A stretch of 43,276 nucleotides of DNA from a virus (Duplodnaviria; Caudoviricetes): the IMG/VR virus record IMGVR_UViG_3300008255_000206, positions 1-43,276 of that record; one strand, given 5' to 3'. This document shows, in pieces, positions 12,189 to 31,639 of the stretch. The position numbers and the translations under genes are program-made. The notes below the pieces were generated by a model. The model did not search any database and had not been told where the DNA came from. It worked only from the letters and a program-made list of their open reading frames with translations. How positions within the stretch are numbered: the first letter of the stretch is position 1; every line of letters starts with the position of its first letter.

Positions 12189-13376
12189 TCATTTCGGCAC
12201 CGCCTTAGCTAAAGGCCGATAAACATATCCGCCTTTTTCTAGCTGCTTTTTAATCAGCTGCCCCCGTTCCATCATCTCAATCGTAGTGTTGATTTGATGG
12301 ACGGGGATACGCTCTTGTAAGAACTGAACTAGTCGGGGTTCAGCGATCGGCTTATTCTCTTTCATGTAAATTGTGTAGAGGTAATGCCATGCTTCCTCGA
12401 TGTTCCGACCAGCGCCGCCGGACGACATGGACTTGAAGATATCCGGCATAAAGAACTCAGCCTCGATCAGGGTGTCAAGCGCCTGCTGGAAATCAGCAAC
12501 GGTTATCTCGTAGCGAAGGTCCATTGCGGCATAGATCATGCAAAGCTTGAGCAAGTGGACTAGTCGCCGTCCGTTGTAATACATCAGCTTGGGATGATCT
12601 GGGGTCGGAACCCCTCCACCGAAGTGCCAGTTCTTGATGAGGATTTTCACCTCTTCCTGGAAGAACATCTGGCCATACATGTTGCCGATCTTTTGCAGCT
12701 TCTTCTTCAACGCGCCGAACCGCTTGGTGTCACCTTCCTCGTCTTCATCTTGAAAGGGGTCTTTGAGTTGTTTGTCGGCTGTGAATACGATGATTGTGCG
12801 AGAGGTGAAGCCCTGATCCCAAGCGCCCTCTGGAAGGAAAGAGTTGAGGTAGGACGGAGTACAGGCGGTGAACATATTGATTTGCGGGTTTTCGATTTCG
12901 ATCTCAAGCTTATTTGTCCGGCGCTTCTCTCCGTAAGCCTTGCAATCGTAAAGGTCAGTCAGTGCGTTCATCATCGCCTTGTCATATTCGGGTAGAAAGT
13001 TACCAAGCTCATTGACGCAGAGGGTCAATGAGTTATAGGTGATTACGTTCTGTTTGTCCTGGGGACGAACTATCTTCTTTTCGCAGTCAGCGAGCTCGTC
13101 AACTAGTGAGGCTTTAGTGACAGAAGTAGGCGCGAGGTGCTGTTCTTCAACACTCGCAAGTAGGTCGCGGACACGCCAAGTGACCTCTGTTTTGCCAACC
13201 GCTGGTGGAGCGCATAGAATGATGTAGAGGTTAGGAAACAGGTTAGACCCGTTGGTGCGAACCCACACCTTGCGCTCCAACGCTGCGCCGACGGAGAAGA
13301 TCGCGCCCCATTTTCGGAAAAGCTCTGGTGAAGCGATGTGCTTTGTGGCATCTAGAAAATCCCCGATCCATGTCAT
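12189..13376 (-). CDS. AAA+ ATPase, DUF3987/MCM-like putative replicative helicase
   Basis: Walker A APPAVGKT, Walker B LCVNE, sensor FTACTP, Arg finger GFTSR, probable C-terminal winged helix; 4-bp overlap with the polymerase gene. Confidence 0.7.
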   Translation of the reverse strand: MTWIGDFLDATKHIASPELFRKWGAIFSVGAALERKVWVRTNGSNLFPNLYIILCAPPAVGKTEVTWRVRDLLASVEEQHLAPTSVTKASLVDELADCEKKIVRPQDKQNVITYNSLTLCVNELGNFLPEYDKAMMNALTDLYDCKAYGEKRRTNKLEIEIENPQINMFTACTPSYLNSFLPEGAWDQGFTSRTIIVFTADKQLKDPFQDEDEEGDTKRFGALKKKLQKIGNMYGQMFFQEEVKILIKNWHFGGGVPTPDHPKLMYYNGRRLVHLLKLCMIYAAMDLRYEITVADFQQALDTLIEAEFFMPDIFKSMSSGGAGRNIEEAWHYLYTIYMKENKPIAEPRLVQFLQERIPVHQINTTIEMMERGQLIKKQLEKGGYVYRPLAKAVPK

Positions 13377-14983
13377 AGATAGTCCTTGAAGCGCCGTATT
13401 GGGGCAGGACGATTACGCTCGTCCGCTTTGCCTTTCCATTTTACAAGGCCATACGGATTTACGTTGGGGTTATCGTAGTCATACTTCCCCCAATTCCATC
13501 CGATCTGTGCCTCGAGCGGAACGTGGAACATTCGACCGCCTTTAAGCTCTTTGTTGACTTGCATTACATTGAGGATTTCGGGGATAAGATCAGCGTGTTC
13601 AGAGTAGGGGATTTGGAAGAGGATGGAGTCATGAACTTGAAGGAGCGGTTGAACTACGGTAGAGGGGAAGTGGCGATATACTTGAAGCAGACCCCGGTCG
13701 ATTTCCTCACCGGTAGAGGATTGTGGATCGTAGGCGATGGCAGCTCGCCAAGTAGAAGCGTCATTGCCTCGTCCAAAGAAGTGACGGCGACGGCCGAAGA
13801 GGTTGTAGAGAACTCCAGTCTCTTCGATTTTATTGATGACCCAAGCGTGCCAAGCCGGAATGGCCGGGAACTCCTCGAAGTAGTTATCTTGGAACGCCTT
13901 GACAAGGATGGTGGGGATGTGAGTCTGGGCTGCCATGTTTGGCGGCTTGCCGAAGTAGTTTGTGCCGTGACCTAGTTTCTTGGCCGACTGACGATAACTG
14001 TCTTGCCGATGAAACATGATCCCGTCGCAGAATTTCTTCCACTCGGCGGGGTCTTCGGGCCAAGCGAGGTTGGGCCAGCACATACGGCTGACGGTTGTGT
14101 GCAGATCGCCGCCTTCGCAAGCGTCCAGATAGTGCCCGGCAAACTCAGGGCCAACGGCTCCGGTCCAAGACTTTTTGCCAAGAAGCCTTGCGATATCTTT
14201 GGCGTCATAGTCATAGAACGTCTCCCAAAGCCTGGCACCGACGTTGCGGGCGTCAGCTTGCTCGAGGTCAATGTTGAGAAAGATCATGCCGGGATCAGCT
14301 TCGAAAGGCTCACGCAATGACCGATCGACGTTTTGCAGATTGGTGCCGGAACCGAAGTCTGAATAGGCCGAAGACAGTCGACCGGTGTTTGTTCCTGCGA
14401 TGTTGTAGCCCGTGCGGATGCGGCTGTCCTCGTCAATCTGGGTGCGTAAGAAGCCAAGAGACTTACTGATCCCCCGCATGATAAGGATCATATTGCAGAA
14501 CGGCAGAGCAAAGAGGTGGACCTTGAGTTTCTCCAAGGCCTCCTCATTTACTGTTGCTGCAAAAATTCCATTTGAGTTTCGTTTCTTGATTTCTTTGAAA
14601 CCGAGGCAGGTGTAGAACAAGGACTTGATCTGCATCGGCGAGGCCGGGTTGAAAGGGCCATCAAACAACTCGGTGCAGAGATAATCGAACTTCTCTCGCA
14701 CCTCGTTGTAGGTTTCAGTCAGCTCTTTGATTTTCTTGTCGCGGACTTCCTTGTTGATGTATACGCCGTGAAGCTCCATCTCCATGTAAGGAGCAAGCTT
14801 GTCGAGCGCCGTCGCATAAGTCTCTTGGACTTCGGGATCGGAGTTGATCTCCTCTTGCAAGACGTTGTAGATTTCTGCGGTTACGCAGCAGTCAAGGCCA
14901 TTGTAAATCCATGACGCCTGATTGGCGGTCAAGGTTTTCATCATGGCCTCGTCGAGAAAGGCGGTGTCGAATACGTCAGCCAT
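13373..14983 (-). CDS. polA: Family A DNA polymerase, polymerase subunit (carries ExoIII only)
   Basis: TGRLSS, NLQN, motif A DLEQADAR, motif B RQSAKKLGHGTNYFG, motif C VHDS; N-terminal YNGLD. Start placed at MADVF. Confidence 0.93.
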   Translation of the reverse strand: MADVFDTAFLDEAMMKTLTANQASWIYNGLDCCVTAEIYNVLQEEINSDPEVQETYATALDKLAPYMEMELHGVYINKEVRDKKIKELTETYNEVREKFDYLCTELFDGPFNPASPMQIKSLFYTCLGFKEIKKRNSNGIFAATVNEEALEKLKVHLFALPFCNMILIMRGISKSLGFLRTQIDEDSRIRTGYNIAGTNTGRLSSAYSDFGSGTNLQNVDRSLREPFEADPGMIFLNIDLEQADARNVGARLWETFYDYDAKDIARLLGKKSWTGAVGPEFAGHYLDACEGGDLHTTVSRMCWPNLAWPEDPAEWKKFCDGIMFHRQDSYRQSAKKLGHGTNYFGKPPNMAAQTHIPTILVKAFQDNYFEEFPAIPAWHAWVINKIEETGVLYNLFGRRRHFFGRGNDASTWRAAIAYDPQSSTGEEIDRGLLQVYRHFPSTVVQPLLQVHDSILFQIPYSEHADLIPEILNVMQVNKELKGGRMFHVPLEAQIGWNWGKYDYDNPNVNPYGLVKWKGKADERNRPAPIRRFKDYL

Positions 14984-15323
14984 TAGCGATAGACTCTGTA
15001 TGAGGAGCATACAAAAAGACCGGGATAGAGGCTATTTTTGCGAACTCTATTTCGCCGGCTACACCTTTCGACTCCCGCCAACCATCGAGAATGAGAACAT
15101 AGATGGACTCGGCTAAAGCCAACATGTGATGATTGTAGTTGGCCCAAAAGTTGTAGTCAGTTGGCATCTCATATCTGTGAGCAAGCCAATGACAGTGAAC
15201 GATTGGACTGTAAATCATTTCTCCCTTTTGTAGGAGTTTGGCCGTAGCCCGTTCGGCAGCCATATAGCGTTGCTGCCTGATGTTAGAGTCTGGGTGAGAG
15301 TAGGGGGATGCGAGATAGATCAT
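14976..15323 (-). CDS. DUF1937 / nucleoside 2-deoxyribosyltransferase-like protein
   Basis: IYLASPYS...SPIVH...GWRESKGVAGEIEFA signature. Confidence 0.8.
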   Translation of the reverse strand: MIYLASPYSHPDSNIRQQRYMAAERATAKLLQKGEMIYSPIVHCHWLAHRYEMPTDYNFWANYNHHMLALAESIYVLILDGWRESKGVAGEIEFAKIASIPVFLYAPHTESIANG

Positions 15324-15610
15324 GGTTTCAAACTCAAGAAAGGAGGAAAGCCATAACGGCGGATAGCGCGATCGGAAAATTCAATGGTCCAGAGATCGGC
15401 GGGAACTGTCGTTGACTTGATTGCTTGTGCAAGGTGAGCGGCGATTGTTTTGTTGCCGTAGCCCCTCAGATCACCGCTGCGCTGCATGACGCCTTCGTCC
15501 ACGCTGACCTCAACCTCGAAGAACCCGCCCTCGGTTGGAAGGACGGGATGAGTTTTCTCAACTATCCGGGTGCGAAGCGTGGCGAGGATCATTTCAAGTC
15601 GATCCTGCAA
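15320..15610 (-). CDS. Hypothetical protein
   Basis: Overlaps both neighbours in the operon. Confidence 0.5.
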   Translation of the reverse strand: MQDRLEMILATLRTRIVEKTHPVLPTEGGFFEVEVSVDEGVMQRSGDLRGYGNKTIAAHLAQAIKSTTVPADLWTIEFSDRAIRRYGFPPFLSLKP

Positions 15611-15819
15611 GCGACCGTAGGCAACGGAGGCTCTGGCGGAAAGATAATGTGGTCAAGCGAAAACGAGCGGCGCTCGCCCTTGTGCACGTCGATGCCGGTC
15701 AGAAACCAGCCGGGCTCGTAATCGAAGCCGGGGTTTGTGAGGTATTCAAGGCACTCCACGTCGAGCATACGATCGCTTGTGATGCCTTTGTAGTTTTTGT
15801 AAGTGAATGAAAGGATCAT
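15589..15819 (-). CDS. Stand-alone WYL-like domain protein
   Basis: FTYKNYKG..SDR...WFLTGIDVHKGERRSFSLDHI matches the WYL/SH3-fold pattern. Confidence 0.7.
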   Translation of the reverse strand: MILSFTYKNYKGITSDRMLDVECLEYLTNPGFDYEPGWFLTGIDVHKGERRSFSLDHIIFPPEPPLPTVACRIDLK

Positions 15820-15950
15820 TCTGCTTTCTCCTCTTTTTTCGGCCGCGCCAGTGCGTCGATCACGGCCTGGGTTATGTCTTCCGCCTGTTGCTGATTATAA
15901 CAATGCGGAACAACGGCTTGGAAAATCTTCCAGAAGCGAGCGTCTTTCAT
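15816..15950 (-). CDS. 44-aa hypothetical protein
   Basis: Translated by hand: MKDARFWKIFQAVVPHCY...EEKAE*. AAGGA RBS; ATGA overlap with the WYL gene. Confidence 0.55.
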   Translation of the reverse strand: MKDARFWKIFQAVVPHCYNQQQAEDITQAVIDALARPKKEEKAE

Positions 15951-15987
15951 AGACTGGTTTCCTTTCAGTAGGTAGATGAAGCGCACG

Positions 15988-17025
15988 TCAGTCTTCCTTC
16001 TTCAACGTGCTGTGGTCGTTGCGCATGAATTTCCAGCTGGGCTCGTTAGTGTAGATCGAGCCCAAGAAACCGAGAGACTTTTCAAGCTCGGGCTGCAGTG
16101 AGTGGTGCTGGAGCATTGTGTCGCCAAGAAACTTGGGGCATGGTATTCCCATCCGCTTCCAGAAATATTTCATGTCATAGGAAAAGTTTTGACCGATCAT
16201 CGGGAACTCGGTGTTTATGCGGCGAACCCAGGCCCAGGCGGCTCGTTCCTGTTCGAGGGTTGGCCAGAAATTTCCACTGCTTTTCTCGCGATCGTAGAAA
16301 GGCAGGACGATAGCACGAGAGCCGTCTGCAGTGGAGTAACCCACTTCTGTGATATCAAGTCCAATGGTCTCAATGTCGCAAGACAAGAACGGCTGACCAA
16401 CAAGAAACTCATGGTAGAAGTCCTCGATATCCTGTAGATCGGGGTTCATGTAGATGAGGTGCGACGGACGGCGAAGCTCGGGAAAGAGGCATTCGCGCCG
16501 GGTTTTGCTGACGTCAGCTAGGACGATCGGGCGCAGGCCATACTGTCGCATGACAGAGTTGGGGTGCCATGTGGGGATGACCTTGCGGACAAGGCGATCG
16601 CCACCAATCTCAGTCGAAAGATCGAAGGTCTCGAGCGGAGACCCTCGATACTTTTTGATCCCCTGCTTTTTGCACAAAGCCCAAAGCGCGACGTTGCCCA
16701 TTGCAAGGATCACATTGGGCTGTCGGTTACGGATCTCGGTGTAGAGTCGATGCAGTTCGTGCTGGAAATCAACTCGAACATACTGATCGGGCTTGGTAAA
16801 CAAGGGACGATAGTTGGGGATTGCGGTTGCCTTGGGTCCACAAAAATTTTCCAAACGTCCACCTGCGGGAAAACGATTGAAGACGTTTGTGAGATAGCAG
16901 TCGGACTCAGCAATCCCAGCCTGACGGAGTAGACTACGTAACATCCCCCCTGCTGTGCCGGAAAAGGGGGCACTTCGCTGTTCGTCTTGCTCGCTCCACG
17001 CTTCGCCTACGATCATTATGGACAT
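15988..17025 (-). CDS. UDG family-4-like domain fused to the N-terminal part of a 3'-5' exonuclease (second polymerase subunit)
   Basis: IVGEA..PFSGTAG, YLTNV and TWHP UDG motifs, then ExoI CDIET, ExoII QNFSYD and DTML. Start placed at MSIMIVGEA. Confidence 0.85.
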   Translation of the reverse strand: MSIMIVGEAWSEQDEQRSAPFSGTAGGMLRSLLRQAGIAESDCYLTNVFNRFPAGGRLENFCGPKATAIPNYRPLFTKPDQYVRVDFQHELHRLYTEIRNRQPNVILAMGNVALWALCKKQGIKKYRGSPLETFDLSTEIGGDRLVRKVIPTWHPNSVMRQYGLRPIVLADVSKTRRECLFPELRRPSHLIYMNPDLQDIEDFYHEFLVGQPFLSCDIETIGLDITEVGYSTADGSRAIVLPFYDREKSSGNFWPTLEQERAAWAWVRRINTEFPMIGQNFSYDMKYFWKRMGIPCPKFLGDTMLQHHSLQPELEKSLGFLGSIYTNEPSWKFMRNDHSTLKKED

Positions 17026-17032
17026 GGTATGG

Positions 17033-17356
17033 TCATTCCGCTTCTCGAACAGACCATACAGCCTGTGTTGCAGATGGTTTGCCGTAGCGGTAACGGGCGA
17101 CGCCGGGGCAACAGGCTTGGTTAGCAAAGCACCGAATGAAGGACGGACAGCTCCAAAAGCCATCATTGCGAGGATCATCAGAGCTTATAAAGCTATCGCT
17201 TTCAAAGGTGACTTCAGTTTTCCCCACAGTAAACATCATCTTGCCTTTGGGTTTTTTCAAGCAATCAACCATCTCACATTCAACAACTATGCCGGGCTTT
17301 AGAATAGAGCCGGGAAAACCTGAGTGATCATGATTGTGCCAGTCAGACCAGATCAT
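17033..17356 (-). CDS. Hypothetical protein
   Basis: ATGA-coupled to the methyltransferase gene. Confidence 0.55.
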   Translation of the reverse strand: MIWSDWHNHDHSGFPGSILKPGIVVECEMVDCLKKPKGKMMFTVGKTEVTFESDSFISSDDPRNDGFWSCPSFIRCFANQACCPGVARYRYGKPSATQAVWSVREAE

Positions 17357-28219: not shown

Positions 28220-28597
28220 TCAGTCAAACAGATCATCATCAACGGTCTTAGGCACCACGTCGATTTCGTTACCGTCCTTGTCGGTGACTTTGAAATCCCC
28301 GATCTCGTAGCGATCGAACCGCAACCAACGACTGGTGCGCTTGCCGGGCTCCAGATTGTGATGGCGAATGACGAGCACATCATAGGCTGTGACGGCGGCT
28401 CGGCCCGGAACGAGGGCAGTGACTTCTTCGTTCAGGGCCCTGACGATGTTGCGATACCGATAACATCGCTGACGAAAGTTGATCGCCGCCCCGACTGTCG
28501 GAAACGTGACAATCATGCCTGGGTTATCGAGGGCCTTGTTCATGACCTGCTCGCAATCTTGATATGCGGCAGGCGATTTGTTATAACCTCGGGGCAT
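28220..28597 (-). CDS. Hypothetical protein
   Basis: Start MPRGYN, TGATG-coupled to the upstream ORF. Confidence 0.7.
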   Translation of the reverse strand: MPRGYNKSPAAYQDCEQVMNKALDNPGMIVTFPTVGAAINFRQRCYRYRNIVRALNEEVTALVPGRAAVTAYDVLVIRHHNLEPGKRTSRWLRFDRYEIGDFKVTDKDGNEIDVVPKTVDDDLFD

Positions 28598-28937: not shown

Positions 28938-29068
28938 TTCTTTTTTCCTTCATATATTATGAGATTGATTGCAGCCAGTGTTGCGAGCCAGTTTGCCTTT
29001 TCAAAACTACCGACAGCAGCGCATATTACGCTCACAACGATTAGAGCGACGAATAAAACTGCGTTCAT
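28934..29068 (-). CDS. 44-aa membrane protein
   Basis: Translated by hand: MNAVLFVALIVVSVICAAVGSFEKANWLATLAAINLIIYEGKKK*. GGAG RBS; ATGA-coupled on both sides. Confidence 0.6.
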   Translation of the reverse strand: MNAVLFVALIVVSVICAAVGSFEKANWLATLAAINLIIYEGKKK

Positions 29069-29289
29069 TCGTGCCGCTCCGTTGTCAACAAGAGCCTTTG
29101 CTTGCTCCCGCCCTTTTCCATGAAATCATTAAAGCGAGCGCAGAGGGCTAACCGGCCTGATACTGGCAACGCCATGATTGACATGAAAGCGTTTTCGACT
29201 GGATCACGCAAGGCCACCGTGCGCGCACGATGAACCTCGGTGTTGTGAGCATAATAAGACGTCAGTCTGGGCGCCATGTTCATCCCCAT
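29065..29289 (-). CDS. Hypothetical protein
   Basis: GAGGAG RBS; coupled. Confidence 0.55.
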   Translation of the reverse strand: MGMNMAPRLTSYYAHNTEVHRARTVALRDPVENAFMSIMALPVSGRLALCARFNDFMEKGGSKQRLLLTTERHE

Positions 29290-29438
29290 TGCTCCTCGGC
29301 CAGCCGCACCTCGCGTGGTGGCTTAATTTCAAACACCTCTGCGAAATGCTGATTGAATTCTTCGAGCGCGTCGAGCATGTCGAACGTGTCGTCGTGACGC
29401 AGCTTGGCTTCGCCGTAGCGATCTTTACGCTTGGTCAT
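29280..29438 (-). CDS. Hypothetical protein
   Basis: Start MTKRKD with GGAG RBS. Confidence 0.5.
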   Translation of the reverse strand: MTKRKDRYGEAKLRHDDTFDMLDALEEFNQHFAEVFEIKPPREVRLAEEQWG

Positions 29439-29634
29439 TTTTGGCTCCGTTGATGAGGTTTGTGAGGTCTTCGATTGCCCGCTGATATTGTCCGCGCTTG
29501 TATGCGGTGCCTGTAATGCGAGCGGCTTTGTCAAGGATTTCTGCGCCAGAATGGCGGCTGTTCCTCATGCCCGCTGCCAAAAGCCGCAGATGGCCGCGAA
29601 TAAAAATCGCCATGCCTTGTTCTTCTCTGGTCAT
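29425..29634 (-). CDS. Hypothetical protein
   Basis: Start MTREEQ, ATGA-coupled. Confidence 0.6.
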   Translation of the reverse strand: MTREEQGMAIFIRGHLRLLAAGMRNSRHSGAEILDKAARITGTAYKRGQYQRAIEDLTNLINGAKNDQA

Positions 29635-29816
29635 TTCAGCTCTCCCAGATACTGCGCCTCGCAAAAGGCGGAACCAAGCAGGTTGAGCTTCACGTCATCC
29701 GACAACCAGCGGTCCGGTGTTTTGGAGTTTGATGCACACATTGCGCGCACCCTGAACTCGTTCTCCCCGACAGCTATCTTGCGAATGCCGTCGACAGTCA
29801 GCATGTAAATGAACAT
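29631..29816 (-). CDS. Hypothetical protein
   Basis: GGAGG RBS before MFIYML. Confidence 0.55.
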   Translation of the reverse strand: MFIYMLTVDGIRKIAVGENEFRVRAMCASNSKTPDRWLSDDVKLNLLGSAFCEAQYLGELK

Positions 29817-29817
29817 T

Positions 29818-30102
29818 TCAAACCTCCATGATTTGCACTGGCACAATTACGCAGTCAGATGCTTTGCGTGACTGGATCGGTTCGAGATGCAACGTCTCGT
29901 TAATCTCACCGAAATAGTTACTCACGTTGCGGTGCAGCCTGCCGGCGAGCCAAAAACGCAAGGCCATCTTTGCGGCCTTGCGTGAGGTGAACAAACGCGG
30001 CGGATGCGCTGCGGTAAACTCCATGTGAGTTCCTCCGCGACTTCCATTTGGGCGTGGCATATACCAGCCGGTTGAAAGCTGTTTGATTACGAAAAATGTC
30101 AT
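29818..30102 (-). CDS. Hypothetical protein, first gene after the ribozyme
   Basis: A-rich enhancer plus GGAG RBS. Confidence 0.65.
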   Translation of the reverse strand: MTFFVIKQLSTGWYMPRPNGSRGGTHMEFTAAHPPRLFTSRKAAKMALRFWLAGRLHRNVSNYFGEINETLHLEPIQSRKASDCVIVPVQIMEV

Positions 30103-30141
30103 TCCGTTCTCCGTTGTTGTTTCTTTCGAGACTTGTCTCGG

Positions 30142-30199
30142 TGGCAGTCATCATCAGGCGGGGAATGCCAATCCCCACAACGCCTTGCGGCGTTTCGAC
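30142..30199 (-). ncRNA. Type II hammerhead ribozyme with pseudoknot
   Basis: Minus-strand order: GUC, GAAA, CGCC-GCAA-GGCG, UU (cleavage), GUGGGGA-loop UUGGCAU-UCCCCGC, CUGAUGA, U, GAC, UGCCA. Both core motifs, three stems and a 5-bp loop I/tail pseudoknot are present. Confidence 0.88.
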
Positions 30200-30203
30200 G
30201 GCT

Positions 30204-30221
30204 TTACTCGTCGCTTCGCAT
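30204..30221 (-). CDS. Minigene / leader peptide MRSDE
   Basis: GGAGG Shine-Dalgarno 5 nt before ATG CGA AGC GAC GAG TAA. Confidence 0.5.
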   Translation of the reverse strand: MRSDE

Positions 30222-30270
30222 TTCAACCTCCCTTGTTGGCAATCGCCAGACACACTGGTCCCGTGCACCC

Positions 30271-30299
30271 ACGATACCATAAATTGATCCCCGGCACAA
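30271..30299 (-). promoter_or_regulatory. Sigma70-type early promoter
   Basis: TTGTGC-17 bp-TATCGT with an extended -10 TGn. Confidence 0.6.
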
Positions 30300-30325
30300 T
30301 CGCGGCATCAAGCCCCGTGGCACGG

Positions 30326-30630
30326 TCCGGTGTGCGGGTGTATGCGTCTGACACTCGTCGCTATGGTGGGGGATTGGCTAAATCGGACCGTTTTTCAATG
30401 TGCCGTTGTCACGGGTGCCGTTGGACCATATCGCCTCATATGTATGTGAGGGGGTGAGGGTGTTCCTAGAATGTTCCAAAAAAAAAAAAATTTATAAACT
30501 CATAAAAAACAACAACTCCGAGGTGGTATGGTTCATACACCGCGCGAACGGACCATATCGGAAACCGGGTCAATTTAGCCAATCCCCCACAATACACGCA
30601 ACTCTCAGGCGCATACGCCAACACACCGGA
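30326..30630. repeat. Long imperfect inverted repeat flanking an A13 tract (candidate origin)
   Basis: Arms 30326-30383 and 30573-30630; perfect 18-bp core GTGGGGGATTGGCTAAAT; internal direct repeat GGACCATATCG. Confidence 0.8.
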
Positions 30631-30652
30631 AACGGGGGCATTGCTGCCCCCG
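30627..30652 (-). terminator. Putative terminator
   Basis: CGGGGGCA-4 nt-TGCCCCCG followed by UUU, just after the stop of 30661-31221. Confidence 0.55.
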
Positions 30653-30660
30653 AGGTTGTA

Positions 30661-31221
30661 TCAGAGCTTGATATCAATCGCCATTGCCGCAAGCTCGGCT
30701 GCCGCTTTGGCTTCCGCCTCGAGTATGGTCTCGGCTTTGCGCACAATGGAGGCTTTCCAGCCGTCGTCCTGCTTGCCAAAGATCTCCCAAACAGCCGCGT
30801 CGCGTTCGCTCGGGGACATGTCTTTGTAACCTTCGACGTGGGGCTTGATCTGGTCGCGAACGATCGAGATGACCTTCTTGTCAACGGTCGAAAGCCCGAG
30901 CCCGCCGTTGCCGCGCTCTGCGCCCCAATCACCGGCTGCGAGTTGATCCGCAACCTTCTGCATCAGAGCCTCGCCGGTTTCCGCCACTTTCGGCCCGTTG
31001 GCGGCGATCCATTCCCGACGCTCAGCCGCCGTCAGGTTCTTCCATCCGTCATCGTTGCCGTATGCGACCTGTGCCGCACCAGCCGCCGCGTCGGCGATCT
31101 TTTGCTTCAGCCCGTGCAACGTGGCTTGCCTGATGATCTCGGGCGACAACGCCGAGGGAGTGATCGTGACGCTTTTGCCGCGCGACTCGACAACAAAAGT
31201 ATTGGTGAAGTTGATTTGCAT
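30661..31221 (-). CDS. First early gene, hypothetical helical protein
   Basis: GGAG RBS before MQINFT; strong codon bias; followed by a terminator-like hairpin. Confidence 0.8.
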   Translation of the reverse strand: MQINFTNTFVVESRGKSVTITPSALSPEIIRQATLHGLKQKIADAAAGAAQVAYGNDDGWKNLTAAERREWIAANGPKVAETGEALMQKVADQLAAGDWGAERGNGGLGLSTVDKKVISIVRDQIKPHVEGYKDMSPSERDAAVWEIFGKQDDGWKASIVRKAETILEAEAKAAAELAAMAIDIKL

Positions 31222-31360
31222 TTTCGTTTCTCCGTTAGCTTTGTCCGGTGAACCATTCACCGTAGGGCCATCTATGCACATCCCGCGATGATTCGCAACA
31301 ACGGATTTTGCCCCCATGCGAGTTTGTTTGTGCCAAAATGTCGCACGCACGGCCTTGCTT

Positions 31361-31377
31361 TTGCGAATGACTCGCAA
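31361..31377. promoter_or_regulatory. Palindromic operator resembling an alphaproteobacterial Fur/Mur box
   Basis: TTGCGAATGACTCGCAA; partial copy ATGATTCGCAACAA at 31288-31301. Confidence 0.5.
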
Positions 31378-31460
31378 CAATTTTTCCCCGACTGCCCGTG
31401 CCTGCCCACGCAAGGCCACCCCCCGGTTCGCCGACACCCACCCCCCTCCCCTCTATAGAC

Positions 31461-31555
31461 CCCCCTCGCTAAATTTGTAGTTTCAAAACATGAGCCATAC
31501 TTTCTTTCCCCCTCGCTAAAAATGTAGCGCGAAGCGCTTGAGCCATACCTTTTCC
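31461..31555. repeat. Imperfect tandem repeat, two units of about 47 bp
   Basis: CCCCCTCGCTAAA-nn-TGTAG-(10-11 nt)-TGAGCCATAC occurs twice; a third GAGCCATAC lies at 31619-31627. Confidence 0.8.
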
Positions 31556-31563
31556 GTGCCATA

Positions 31564-31592
31564 TTGACTCGAGCGTGCGAAGGAGGTAGAAT
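31564..31592 (+). promoter_or_regulatory. Sigma70-type promoter for the packaging/structural operon
   Basis: TTGACT-17 bp-TAGAAT. Confidence 0.75.
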
Positions 31593-31639
31593 GCAGAGGA
31601 CCGGCGGAAAAGTGGCCGGAGCCATACAGGAATAGGAAA

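Follow-up and report, generated by a model that had tools for sequence, protein, structure and literature searches.

This locus raises the question of whether the minus strand just ahead of a virus's early genes encodes a self-cleaving hammerhead ribozyme, as had been predicted from the sequence, and if so, what that ribozyme does for the virus. The window (the whole stretch of DNA that was analysed) is a record of 43,276 bases that is 92% complete and whose plus strand carries podovirus-type genes for the head and the tail. The minus strand holds the early or replication arm: about 20 small ORFs run from 30102 downwards and are followed by genes for a helicase, an exonuclease, Sak4, a ParB-methylase, a family A polymerase, and a primase. 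(The family A DNA polymerase is split into two ORFs of 396 and 545 amino acids, at 13373-17178 on the minus strand, with small genes between them that include a nucleoside 2-deoxyribosyltransferase-like gene; the ParB/N6-N4 methylase fusion lies upstream.) This DNA occurs in sequencing runs whose records describe aquifer or groundwater metagenomes, and there is no RNA run among those listed. The closest terminases from cultured phages are 43-48% identical and belong to the Pseudomonas phages AF and UFJF_PfDIW6 and to epsilon15-like phages. A blastn comparison of positions 29000-31500 with 50,697 cultured phages gave no match.

Structure of the predicted ribozyme

The element at 30199-30142 on the minus strand has the topology of a type II hammerhead (loops cap stems I and III, and stem II is open), and it carries a U inserted after A9. 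Four lines of evidence lead to this assignment: the sequence, a structural descriptor, shuffled controls, and a covariance model (R1). Reading 5' to 3' on the minus strand, the 5' side of stem II is GUC (30199-30197) and is followed by GAAA (30196-30193). Folding and alignment place stem III at 30193-30180; it comprises 5 bp (ACGCC/GGCGU), including the A15.1-U16.1 pair (A30193-U30180), and is capped by a GCAA tetraloop (30188-30185). The cleavage triplet is GUU (30181-30179), which is counted as an NUH cleavage site in the literature (PMC3138052; PMC9217987), and the predicted scissile bond lies after U17 of this triplet, between 30179 and 30178, based on the hammerhead consensus and on its equivalence to the start of a published primer. 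Stem I (30178-30158) has 7 bp (GUGGGGA/UCCCCGC, with one U-G pair) and the loop UUGGCAU, as indicated by folding and covariation. It is followed by the core CUGAUGA (30157-30151), the inserted U (30150), and GAC (30149-30147), which closes stem II. Finally, the tail UGCCA (30146-30142) pairs with UGGCA of loop I (30170-30166) to form a 5-bp pseudoknot, in the register seen across the subfamily described below, and this pseudoknot is stacked directly on the 3-bp stem II. All of these elements agree base for base with the original prediction.

The core nucleotides C3, U4, G5, A6, N7, G8, and A9, as well as G12, A13, and A14, are all intact. The descriptor finds that stems of 7, 3, and 5 bp enclose the core and that the G10.1-C11.1 pair is present. 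(The loop I/tail pairing of 5 bp compares with a minimum of 4 bp for the type II pseudoknotted hammerheads of Perreault 2011.) Apart from N17, the ribozyme has no sign of decay, with 20 of 20 pairs and all invariant bases of the core preserved. From the map of ORFs, the ribozyme is intergenic within a phage operon, on the sense strand, and adjoins small genes.

Evidence that the hammerhead is genuine

The descriptor for type II hammerheads matched a single site in the 43,276-base window. When we searched 300 dinucleotide shuffles on both strands, we found 2 loose matches, none with equally good stems and none with a 5-bp pseudoknot. (We rejected a loose match to a type III descriptor at 28440 on the plus strand as due to chance: GAAAC does not follow its core, it is antisense to a gene, and it is lost under a stricter descriptor.)

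A comparison with the Rfam hammerhead models had been suggested as a check, and its outcome was negative: the scan of the window gave no hammerhead match, either at the gathering score or at E <= 10 (there were unrelated weak matches only), and the ribozyme did not reach the gathering threshold of RF02276 (37 bits in cmscan). Nor did we find any other Rfam ribozyme in the window at the gathering score. Because RF02276 caught just 21 of 52 descriptor hammerheads at its gathering score in 20 control loci, we do not consider this miss to be a refutation. The same 21 of 52 imply that Rfam undercounts phage hammerheads. The short stem III, U17, and the insert probably account for the miss, and the window ribozyme is a member of the structural class and not of the family as defined by RF02276 scores.

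R1 was built from 52 viral type II hammerheads, with the window ribozyme left out. It scores the site at 39.5 bits (E of roughly 3e-8), and the second-best match in the genome at 12 bits. Both R1 and the two pattern scans described below were seeded with core letters from the window, so they test the stems and the tail and not the core.

For transcripts that start at 30340 or lower, stems I and III fold with a probability of at least 0.99. Nearest-neighbour folding without the pseudoknot does not predict stem II; forming the active fold would take 5.4 kcal/mol before any pseudoknot energy is counted (the range for the family is -0.9 to 10.8). In the minimum-energy fold, the 5' leader is paired with the tail region. 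The leader also contains UGGCGAUUGCCA (30237-30248, minus strand), in which the UGGC of loop I and the UGCCA of the tail both recur; this stretch could compete with the pseudoknot unless it is folded on itself.

Short contigs from two further runs (X2 and X5) extend across the ribozyme and agree with it at every base, which excludes an assembly error; these runs share habitat and year and possibly come from one campaign. Across the DNA contigs of eight sequencing runs that we compared, there were no variants in the ribozyme.

A subfamily of viral hammerheads with a conserved pseudoknot

We searched IMG/VR for the exact pattern, including the insert after A9, which has an estimated 370 or so matching stretches, and we examined at least 128 loci. 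The matches listed, together with the terminase loci, contain 162 distinct type II hammerheads, whose cleavage triplets are GUC (151), GUA (8), GUU (2), or AUC (1). Among the matches listed, 104 of the 162 have a loop I/tail pseudoknot of at least 4 bp, versus 24.5 (maximum 40) if the tails are shuffled, and the paired positions covary. Furthermore, 84 of the 121 type II hammerheads with enough flanking sequence among the matches listed start no more than 13 nt after the stop codon of a gene of at least 41 amino acids. (We prefer this stricter count; a looser one, 100 of 119, also scored the window itself as positive.)

In a second scan, the loop was fixed as TTGNCAN and the tail was left free. 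This gave 67 distinct matches, 63 of them with good stems; these 63 viral hammerheads, whose loop is UUGRCAW, make up the subfamily to which the window ribozyme belongs. Its loop, UUGGCAU, is the subfamily consensus (51 of 63). The proposed pairing of the tail UGCCA with UGGCA of loop I was borne out: 57 of the 63 members have all five pseudoknot pairs in the register of the window, and the middle pair is G-C in 53 members and A-U in 9. That a single nucleotide after A9 is natural also holds, as the insert is found in 23 of the 63 members and in the near-twin from locus L347 (see below). The cleavage triplet is GUC in 61 members and GUU in 2.

We aligned 61 of these hammerheads, leaving out two copies from L350 with a 4-bp stem II. 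In the alignment, 98.9% of cells are paired, a value that none of 500 column shuffles reached, while slid controls gave at most 48%. Stem III is 100% paired, and 98.7% of the pseudoknot cells are paired; the tail was absent from the search pattern and yet its pairing is conserved. Across the subfamily, stem I has two-sided changes at all 7 pairs. Some members of the subfamily pass the RF02276 gathering score, including those from L312, L315, L316, L333, L341, L343, L358, and L372.

The searches also turned up other groups of ribozymes. A second type II subfamily (43 of the 162, among the matches listed) has a 17-nt stem I arm with a 3-nt loop, no pseudoknot, and a tail that starts with CAA; examples are in L087, L094, L108, L125, L127, L145, L147, L152, and others. 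Just 1 of 44 short-arm members reaches a 4-bp pseudoknot, and it is likely that this subfamily uses another tertiary contact. Large hammerhead arrays lie between small phage genes, with at least 10 copies in L140 (2719-7282), at least 8 in L358 (2498-6740), and 4 in L127 (3001-3757). A twister-P5 ribozyme (L050, 14-74) and a pistol ribozyme (L097, 1166-1210) adjoin type II hammerheads in phage loci.

Near identity to an assayed ribozyme

Table S1 of Perreault et al. 2011 (PMC3088659) gives the oligonucleotides JP090, JP096, JP130, and JP139 for HH3, a hammerhead from an Agrobacterium tumefaciens prophage and the third of a triple array. In L347, we found three hammerheads around ardA, marR, and integrase genes, and the third of these has the letters of the HH3 oligonucleotides. 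Over the 37 nt of the predicted 3' product, the window and the third hammerhead of L347 are identical at 33 bases, and all four changes keep the pairing. Furthermore, the published primer for the 3' fragment of HH3 (JP139) begins at the base that is equivalent to the predicted cut in the window. The A. tumefaciens triple array cleaves in vitro and in E. coli, and the same study reports that the pseudoknot is required for fast cleavage, that it forms on the 3' strand alone, and that 4 of 18 consensus hammerheads tested showed no cleavage (PMC3088659).

Together, the covariation and the near-twin that matches an active ribozyme fully support the identification as a pseudoknotted type II hammerhead. 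We consider it almost certain that the fold is genuine, and it would very probably cleave at physiological Mg2+ concentrations.

Genomic setting ahead of the early genes

The ribozyme had been placed between a promoter and the early operon. The position itself is supported, but the predicted promoter (30299-30271, minus strand) is a weak match to a sigma70-type site (TTGTGC-17-TATCGT, with the TG of an extended -10 element): it was missed by a scan for the consensus promoter. However, the window has four such patterns with an extended -10 element, of which this is one, and the inverted repeat (see below) is followed by a TTG-17/18-nt-(T/G)A element in L273, L219, L306, L215, and L013. Because these relatives have similar elements at the same place, we think that the weak promoter is supported; transcription from it would start near 30264.

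Between the putative promoter and the ribozyme is a predicted GGAGG ribosome site (30231-30227) and a 5-codon ORF (30221-30204, minus strand), encoding MRSDE, whose stop codon is 4 nt ahead of the ribozyme. The layout is the family's usual cassette (stop codon, ribozyme, ribosome site, and gene) with the 5-codon ORF in the slot of gene 1. On the other side of the ribozyme, between it and the next ribosome site, is an extra hairpin of 5 bp (30140-30127, minus strand; CGAGA-CAAG-UCUCG), with a predicted folding energy of -5.3 kcal/mol, in a layout like that of RiboJ. A comparable hairpin is found at that place in just 14 of 138 hammerheads. The first long early ORF (30102-29818, minus strand) encodes 94 amino acids, does not belong to a known family, and starts 76 nt after the predicted cut. 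Folding predicts that cleavage leaves the accessibility of its ribosome site nearly constant (0.28 versus 0.26 unpaired). Within this ORF, about 200 nt past the cut, is a strong terminator-like hairpin (29983-29956, minus strand; 11 pairs and a run of T), which could limit or attenuate the processed transcript.

Upstream of the putative promoter is an imperfect inverted repeat of 305 bp (30326-30630, with no strand assigned; z = -7.9), whose arms of 77-84 bp match at 75% and flank a poly-T core. Beyond it is a conserved phage gene of 186 amino acids (30661-31221, minus strand; 74 homologs), which we used as a marker of synteny; a terminator-like hairpin follows this gene (30652-30628, minus strand). 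The marker gene is divergent from the small terminase gene, and it lies upstream of the repeat in those relatives where the repeat was found. Its family has a length of about 170 amino acids, a motif HGLxQKIADAA, and a Pfam domain in 0 of 74 homologs. For the 186-amino-acid protein itself, we found no Pfam match or useful PHROG match, Atlas matches were below the reliable range, and there was no relative in genome contigs.

Repeats are present at the same place in L013 (6145-6542), L273 (3919-4349), and L215 (870-1310), and after the marker gene in L219, L306, and L310. The succession of marker gene and repeat recurs in L013, L273, L219, and L306, while L215 has the repeat and a promoter-like site. 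In this clade the repeats are 200-430 bp long, mostly with a poly-T core and CCATAC/GTATGG motifs, and they precede the early promoter. Their position and shape are kept, while the arms share no sequence among the four phages that we compared, and the G-U pairs of the repeat have no strand preference (5 versus 4). The repeat probably belongs to the context rather than to the ribozyme itself, and it may serve as a replication origin or as a packaging or end element; the marker protein is a possible partner for it. The CCATAC motif is also found just upstream of the small terminase gene, at 31492-31630 (plus strand), where there are three copies of GAGCCATAC and two CCCCCTCGCTAAA repeats.

Hammerheads are patchy at this position. 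Among relatives with at least 2.9 kb after the marker gene, 4 of 14 have a hammerhead downstream of that gene, and among terminase relatives (at least 52% identity and at least 4 kb upstream, duplicates included), 2 of 17 have one at the same place. Because most relatives do not have a hammerhead there, the ribozyme is dispensable in the clade. One of those that do, L306, has the same stem I as the window (near-identical), a compensatory change from G-C to A-U in the pseudoknot, and a GUC triplet. Among the fetched loci, we found no close relatives of the leader beyond the identical records L001, L209, L210, L295, and L374. The original prediction had overlooked this absence from most related phages, the 5-codon ORF with its GGAGG site, and the presence of the whole pseudoknot and the hairpin on the mRNA.

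Proposed role and alternative explanations

Our best explanation overall, to which we give a probability of about 0.65, is that cleavage in cis at 30179/30178 provides the early mRNA with a 5'-OH end that is folded into a pseudoknot, and that this end slows decay. The early transcript would start near 30264, from the promoter at 30299-30271. Once the tail had been synthesized, stems I-III and the pseudoknot would fold and the bond after U30179 would be cut, in an Mg2+-dependent reaction that is probably somewhat slower than at GUC. The leader of about 86 nt, held by only the 3 bp of stem II, would then be released; it would finish with the stem III hairpin and carry a 2',3'-cyclic phosphate. 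The processed mRNA would begin with a 5'-OH and a 37-nt pseudoknot, lacking both an unpaired 5' base and a 5' monophosphate, and the second hairpin would precede its ribosome site. Such an end would be likely to slow mRNA decay, given that RNases E, J, and Y favour 5' monophosphates (PMC7509114). It had been proposed that stem I would protect the 5'-OH end; this is reasonable, and our model extends it, as the entire H-type pseudoknot and the second hairpin would be retained on the mRNA beyond stem I.

Selection for shaping or stabilising the mRNA end is probable, although its effect need not be strong. Since an uncut primary transcript would already carry a 5' triphosphate, cleavage may add little stability, and the review on decay nucleases (PMC7509114) describes the effect of a 5'-OH on stability as unreported for primer-initiated transcripts. 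GUC and AUC rank as the best cleavage triplets (PMC9217987), and the rarity of GUU (2 of 63 in the subfamily and 2 of 162 type II hammerheads among the matches listed) counts against our explanation, as do the missing Rfam match, the failure of folding to predict stem II, and the 4 of 18 consensus hammerheads that showed no cleavage. A large effect on expression is disfavoured because folding predicts unchanged access to the ribosome site after cleavage, because GUU ranks below GUC and AUC, and because most relatives are free of ribozymes at this place.

It is also conceivable, but we think unlikely, that the ribozyme is the left-over border of a gene cassette. Gene 1 would have been lost except for its ribosome site, start, and stop, which survive as the 5-codon ORF, and the ribozyme would still cut while drifting (C17 to U); its role would lie in the past, when it served gene shuffling as a repeated unit, and it would now do little for expression. 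L219 has a promoter, a 133-amino-acid gene, and a hammerhead in that order, with the gene in the slot of the mini-ORF, and the mini-ORF begins at about the same distance from the -10 box (50 nt downstream). Its ribosome site resembles those of the genes at 29816 and 29634, and of 305 hammerhead-like matches, the window ribozyme is the only one with such a mini-ORF. The rarity of GUU, the patchy distribution of hammerheads among relatives, and the arrays between small genes in L140 and L358 all fit with this account. However, a drifting ribozyme is hard to reconcile with 20 of 20 intact pairs and an intact invariant core, with only N17 changed, and among the fetched loci we did not find a close relative with an intact gene 1.

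We consider it quite improbable that the ribozyme is conditional, gated either by a ribosome that stops on MRSDE and covers stem II and GAAA, or by pairing of arm 2 of the inverted repeat with stem I and loop I in read-through RNA. The stop codon of the mini-ORF is 4 nt ahead of stem II, and arm 2 (around 30380-30366) could base-pair with the region of stem I and loop I. In folding predictions, stem I is lost from transcripts that start at 30385-30405 (probability of at most 0.01) but retained (0.99) if the start is no higher than 30340 or no lower than 30600. When the ribozyme was compared with the 500 nt ahead of it, the best local match scored 12; across 168 other windows from the genome, no score exceeded 11. 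However, this match was spotted after the fact, and its longest exact run, of 10 nt, is equalled in 14 of the 168 control windows. The loop UUGGCAU, being the subfamily consensus, is not tuned to this repeat; there is no such complement in L306 (which has the same stem I), L013, L305, or L219 (scores of 6-9); the predicted promoter lies downstream of the repeat; and the mini-ORF is absent from the other hammerheads among the 305 matches. More broadly, 7 of 125 type II hammerheads among the matches listed have an upstream complementarity score of at least 10; on the downstream side, 4 of 121 reach this score, as do 6 of 470 controls, and the upstream matches that we inspected were mostly gapped and in apparent coding sequence. 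We rejected antisense control by the inverted repeat, as the complement is not conserved and the high upstream scores within the subfamily are mostly due to degenerate hammerhead copies or coding matches. Relative to elements that sense a ligand or an RNA (riboswitch-like, such as glmS), the upstream complement and the mini-ORF are present here but are not conserved. In the open-access literature, we found no report of a phage hammerhead that is gated by a leader peptide or by antisense RNA. If the gating were real, this would be a natural gated RiboJ, a hammerhead under the control of translation or RNA that times early expression in a phage; the slower GUU site would leave time for control, and the end of the early mRNA would depend on the state of translation or on the promoter used.

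Finally, an inactive look-alike (a chance motif, or one misfolded in its context, within a leader or within the open frame of 102-120 amino acids that crosses the ribozyme and ends at 29918) would account for the lack of an Rfam match and for the pairing of the leader with the tail region in the minimum-energy fold, but it is barely credible given that 0 of 300 shuffles are equally good, that R1 gives 39.5 versus 12 bits, that 33 of 37 bases are shared, with compensatory changes, with a copy that matches an assayed ribozyme, and that the crossing frame, which overlaps the 94-amino-acid gene in a different reading frame, is without homologs among the fetched loci.

Comparison with known systems

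The closest known system to the window ribozyme is HH3 of A. tumefaciens. The two share the type II topology, a 7-bp stem I with the same U-G pair, the loop UUGGCAU, CUGAUGA, the U after A9, a 3-bp stem II, and the tail UGCCA. They differ in the cleavage triplet (GUU in the window and GUC in HH3), in stem III (5 bp versus 8 bp), and in the sequence of stem II (GUC/GAC versus ACC/GGU). HH3 is one of three hammerheads between genes, whereas the window has a single copy that heads an operon behind a 5-codon ORF; it also differs from clustered arrays in general, which have at least two ribozymes per operon. Unlike the array in L347, no ardA or integrase gene was found in the window. The consensus layout of RF02276 (Hammerhead_II, clan CL00010) is the same as that of the window ribozyme.

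In its position, the ribozyme is similar to HHphage of the haloviruses HF1 and HF2, a phage hammerhead that precedes the first ORF of an early polycistronic transcript and for which a 5' end has been mapped no more than 3 nt from the cut (PMC3088659). The two differ in that HHphage, from an archaeal virus, has an insertion in its core and lies 13 nt before the start of a helicase gene, whereas the window ribozyme has a canonical core and a distance of 76 nt to the start codon. The combination of a hammerhead and a short hairpin between a promoter and a ribosome site is also found in RiboJ, which yields a uniform structured 5' end and raises mRNA about twofold on average (PMC6206723). RiboJ is synthetic and derived from sTRSV, whereas the window has a natural pseudoknotted type II element.

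The type, the pseudoknot, the insert, and the position in an early transcript all have published precedent, and the arrangement was described and assayed in 2011, so this copy leaves existing knowledge unchanged. The purpose of self-cleaving ribozymes in phages is described as still open in the literature (PMC6765202). We found no other ribozyme in this genome, and because this copy heads an early operon and almost matches one that has been assayed, it is a clean test case for the hypothesis that phage hammerheads shape the ends of mRNAs.
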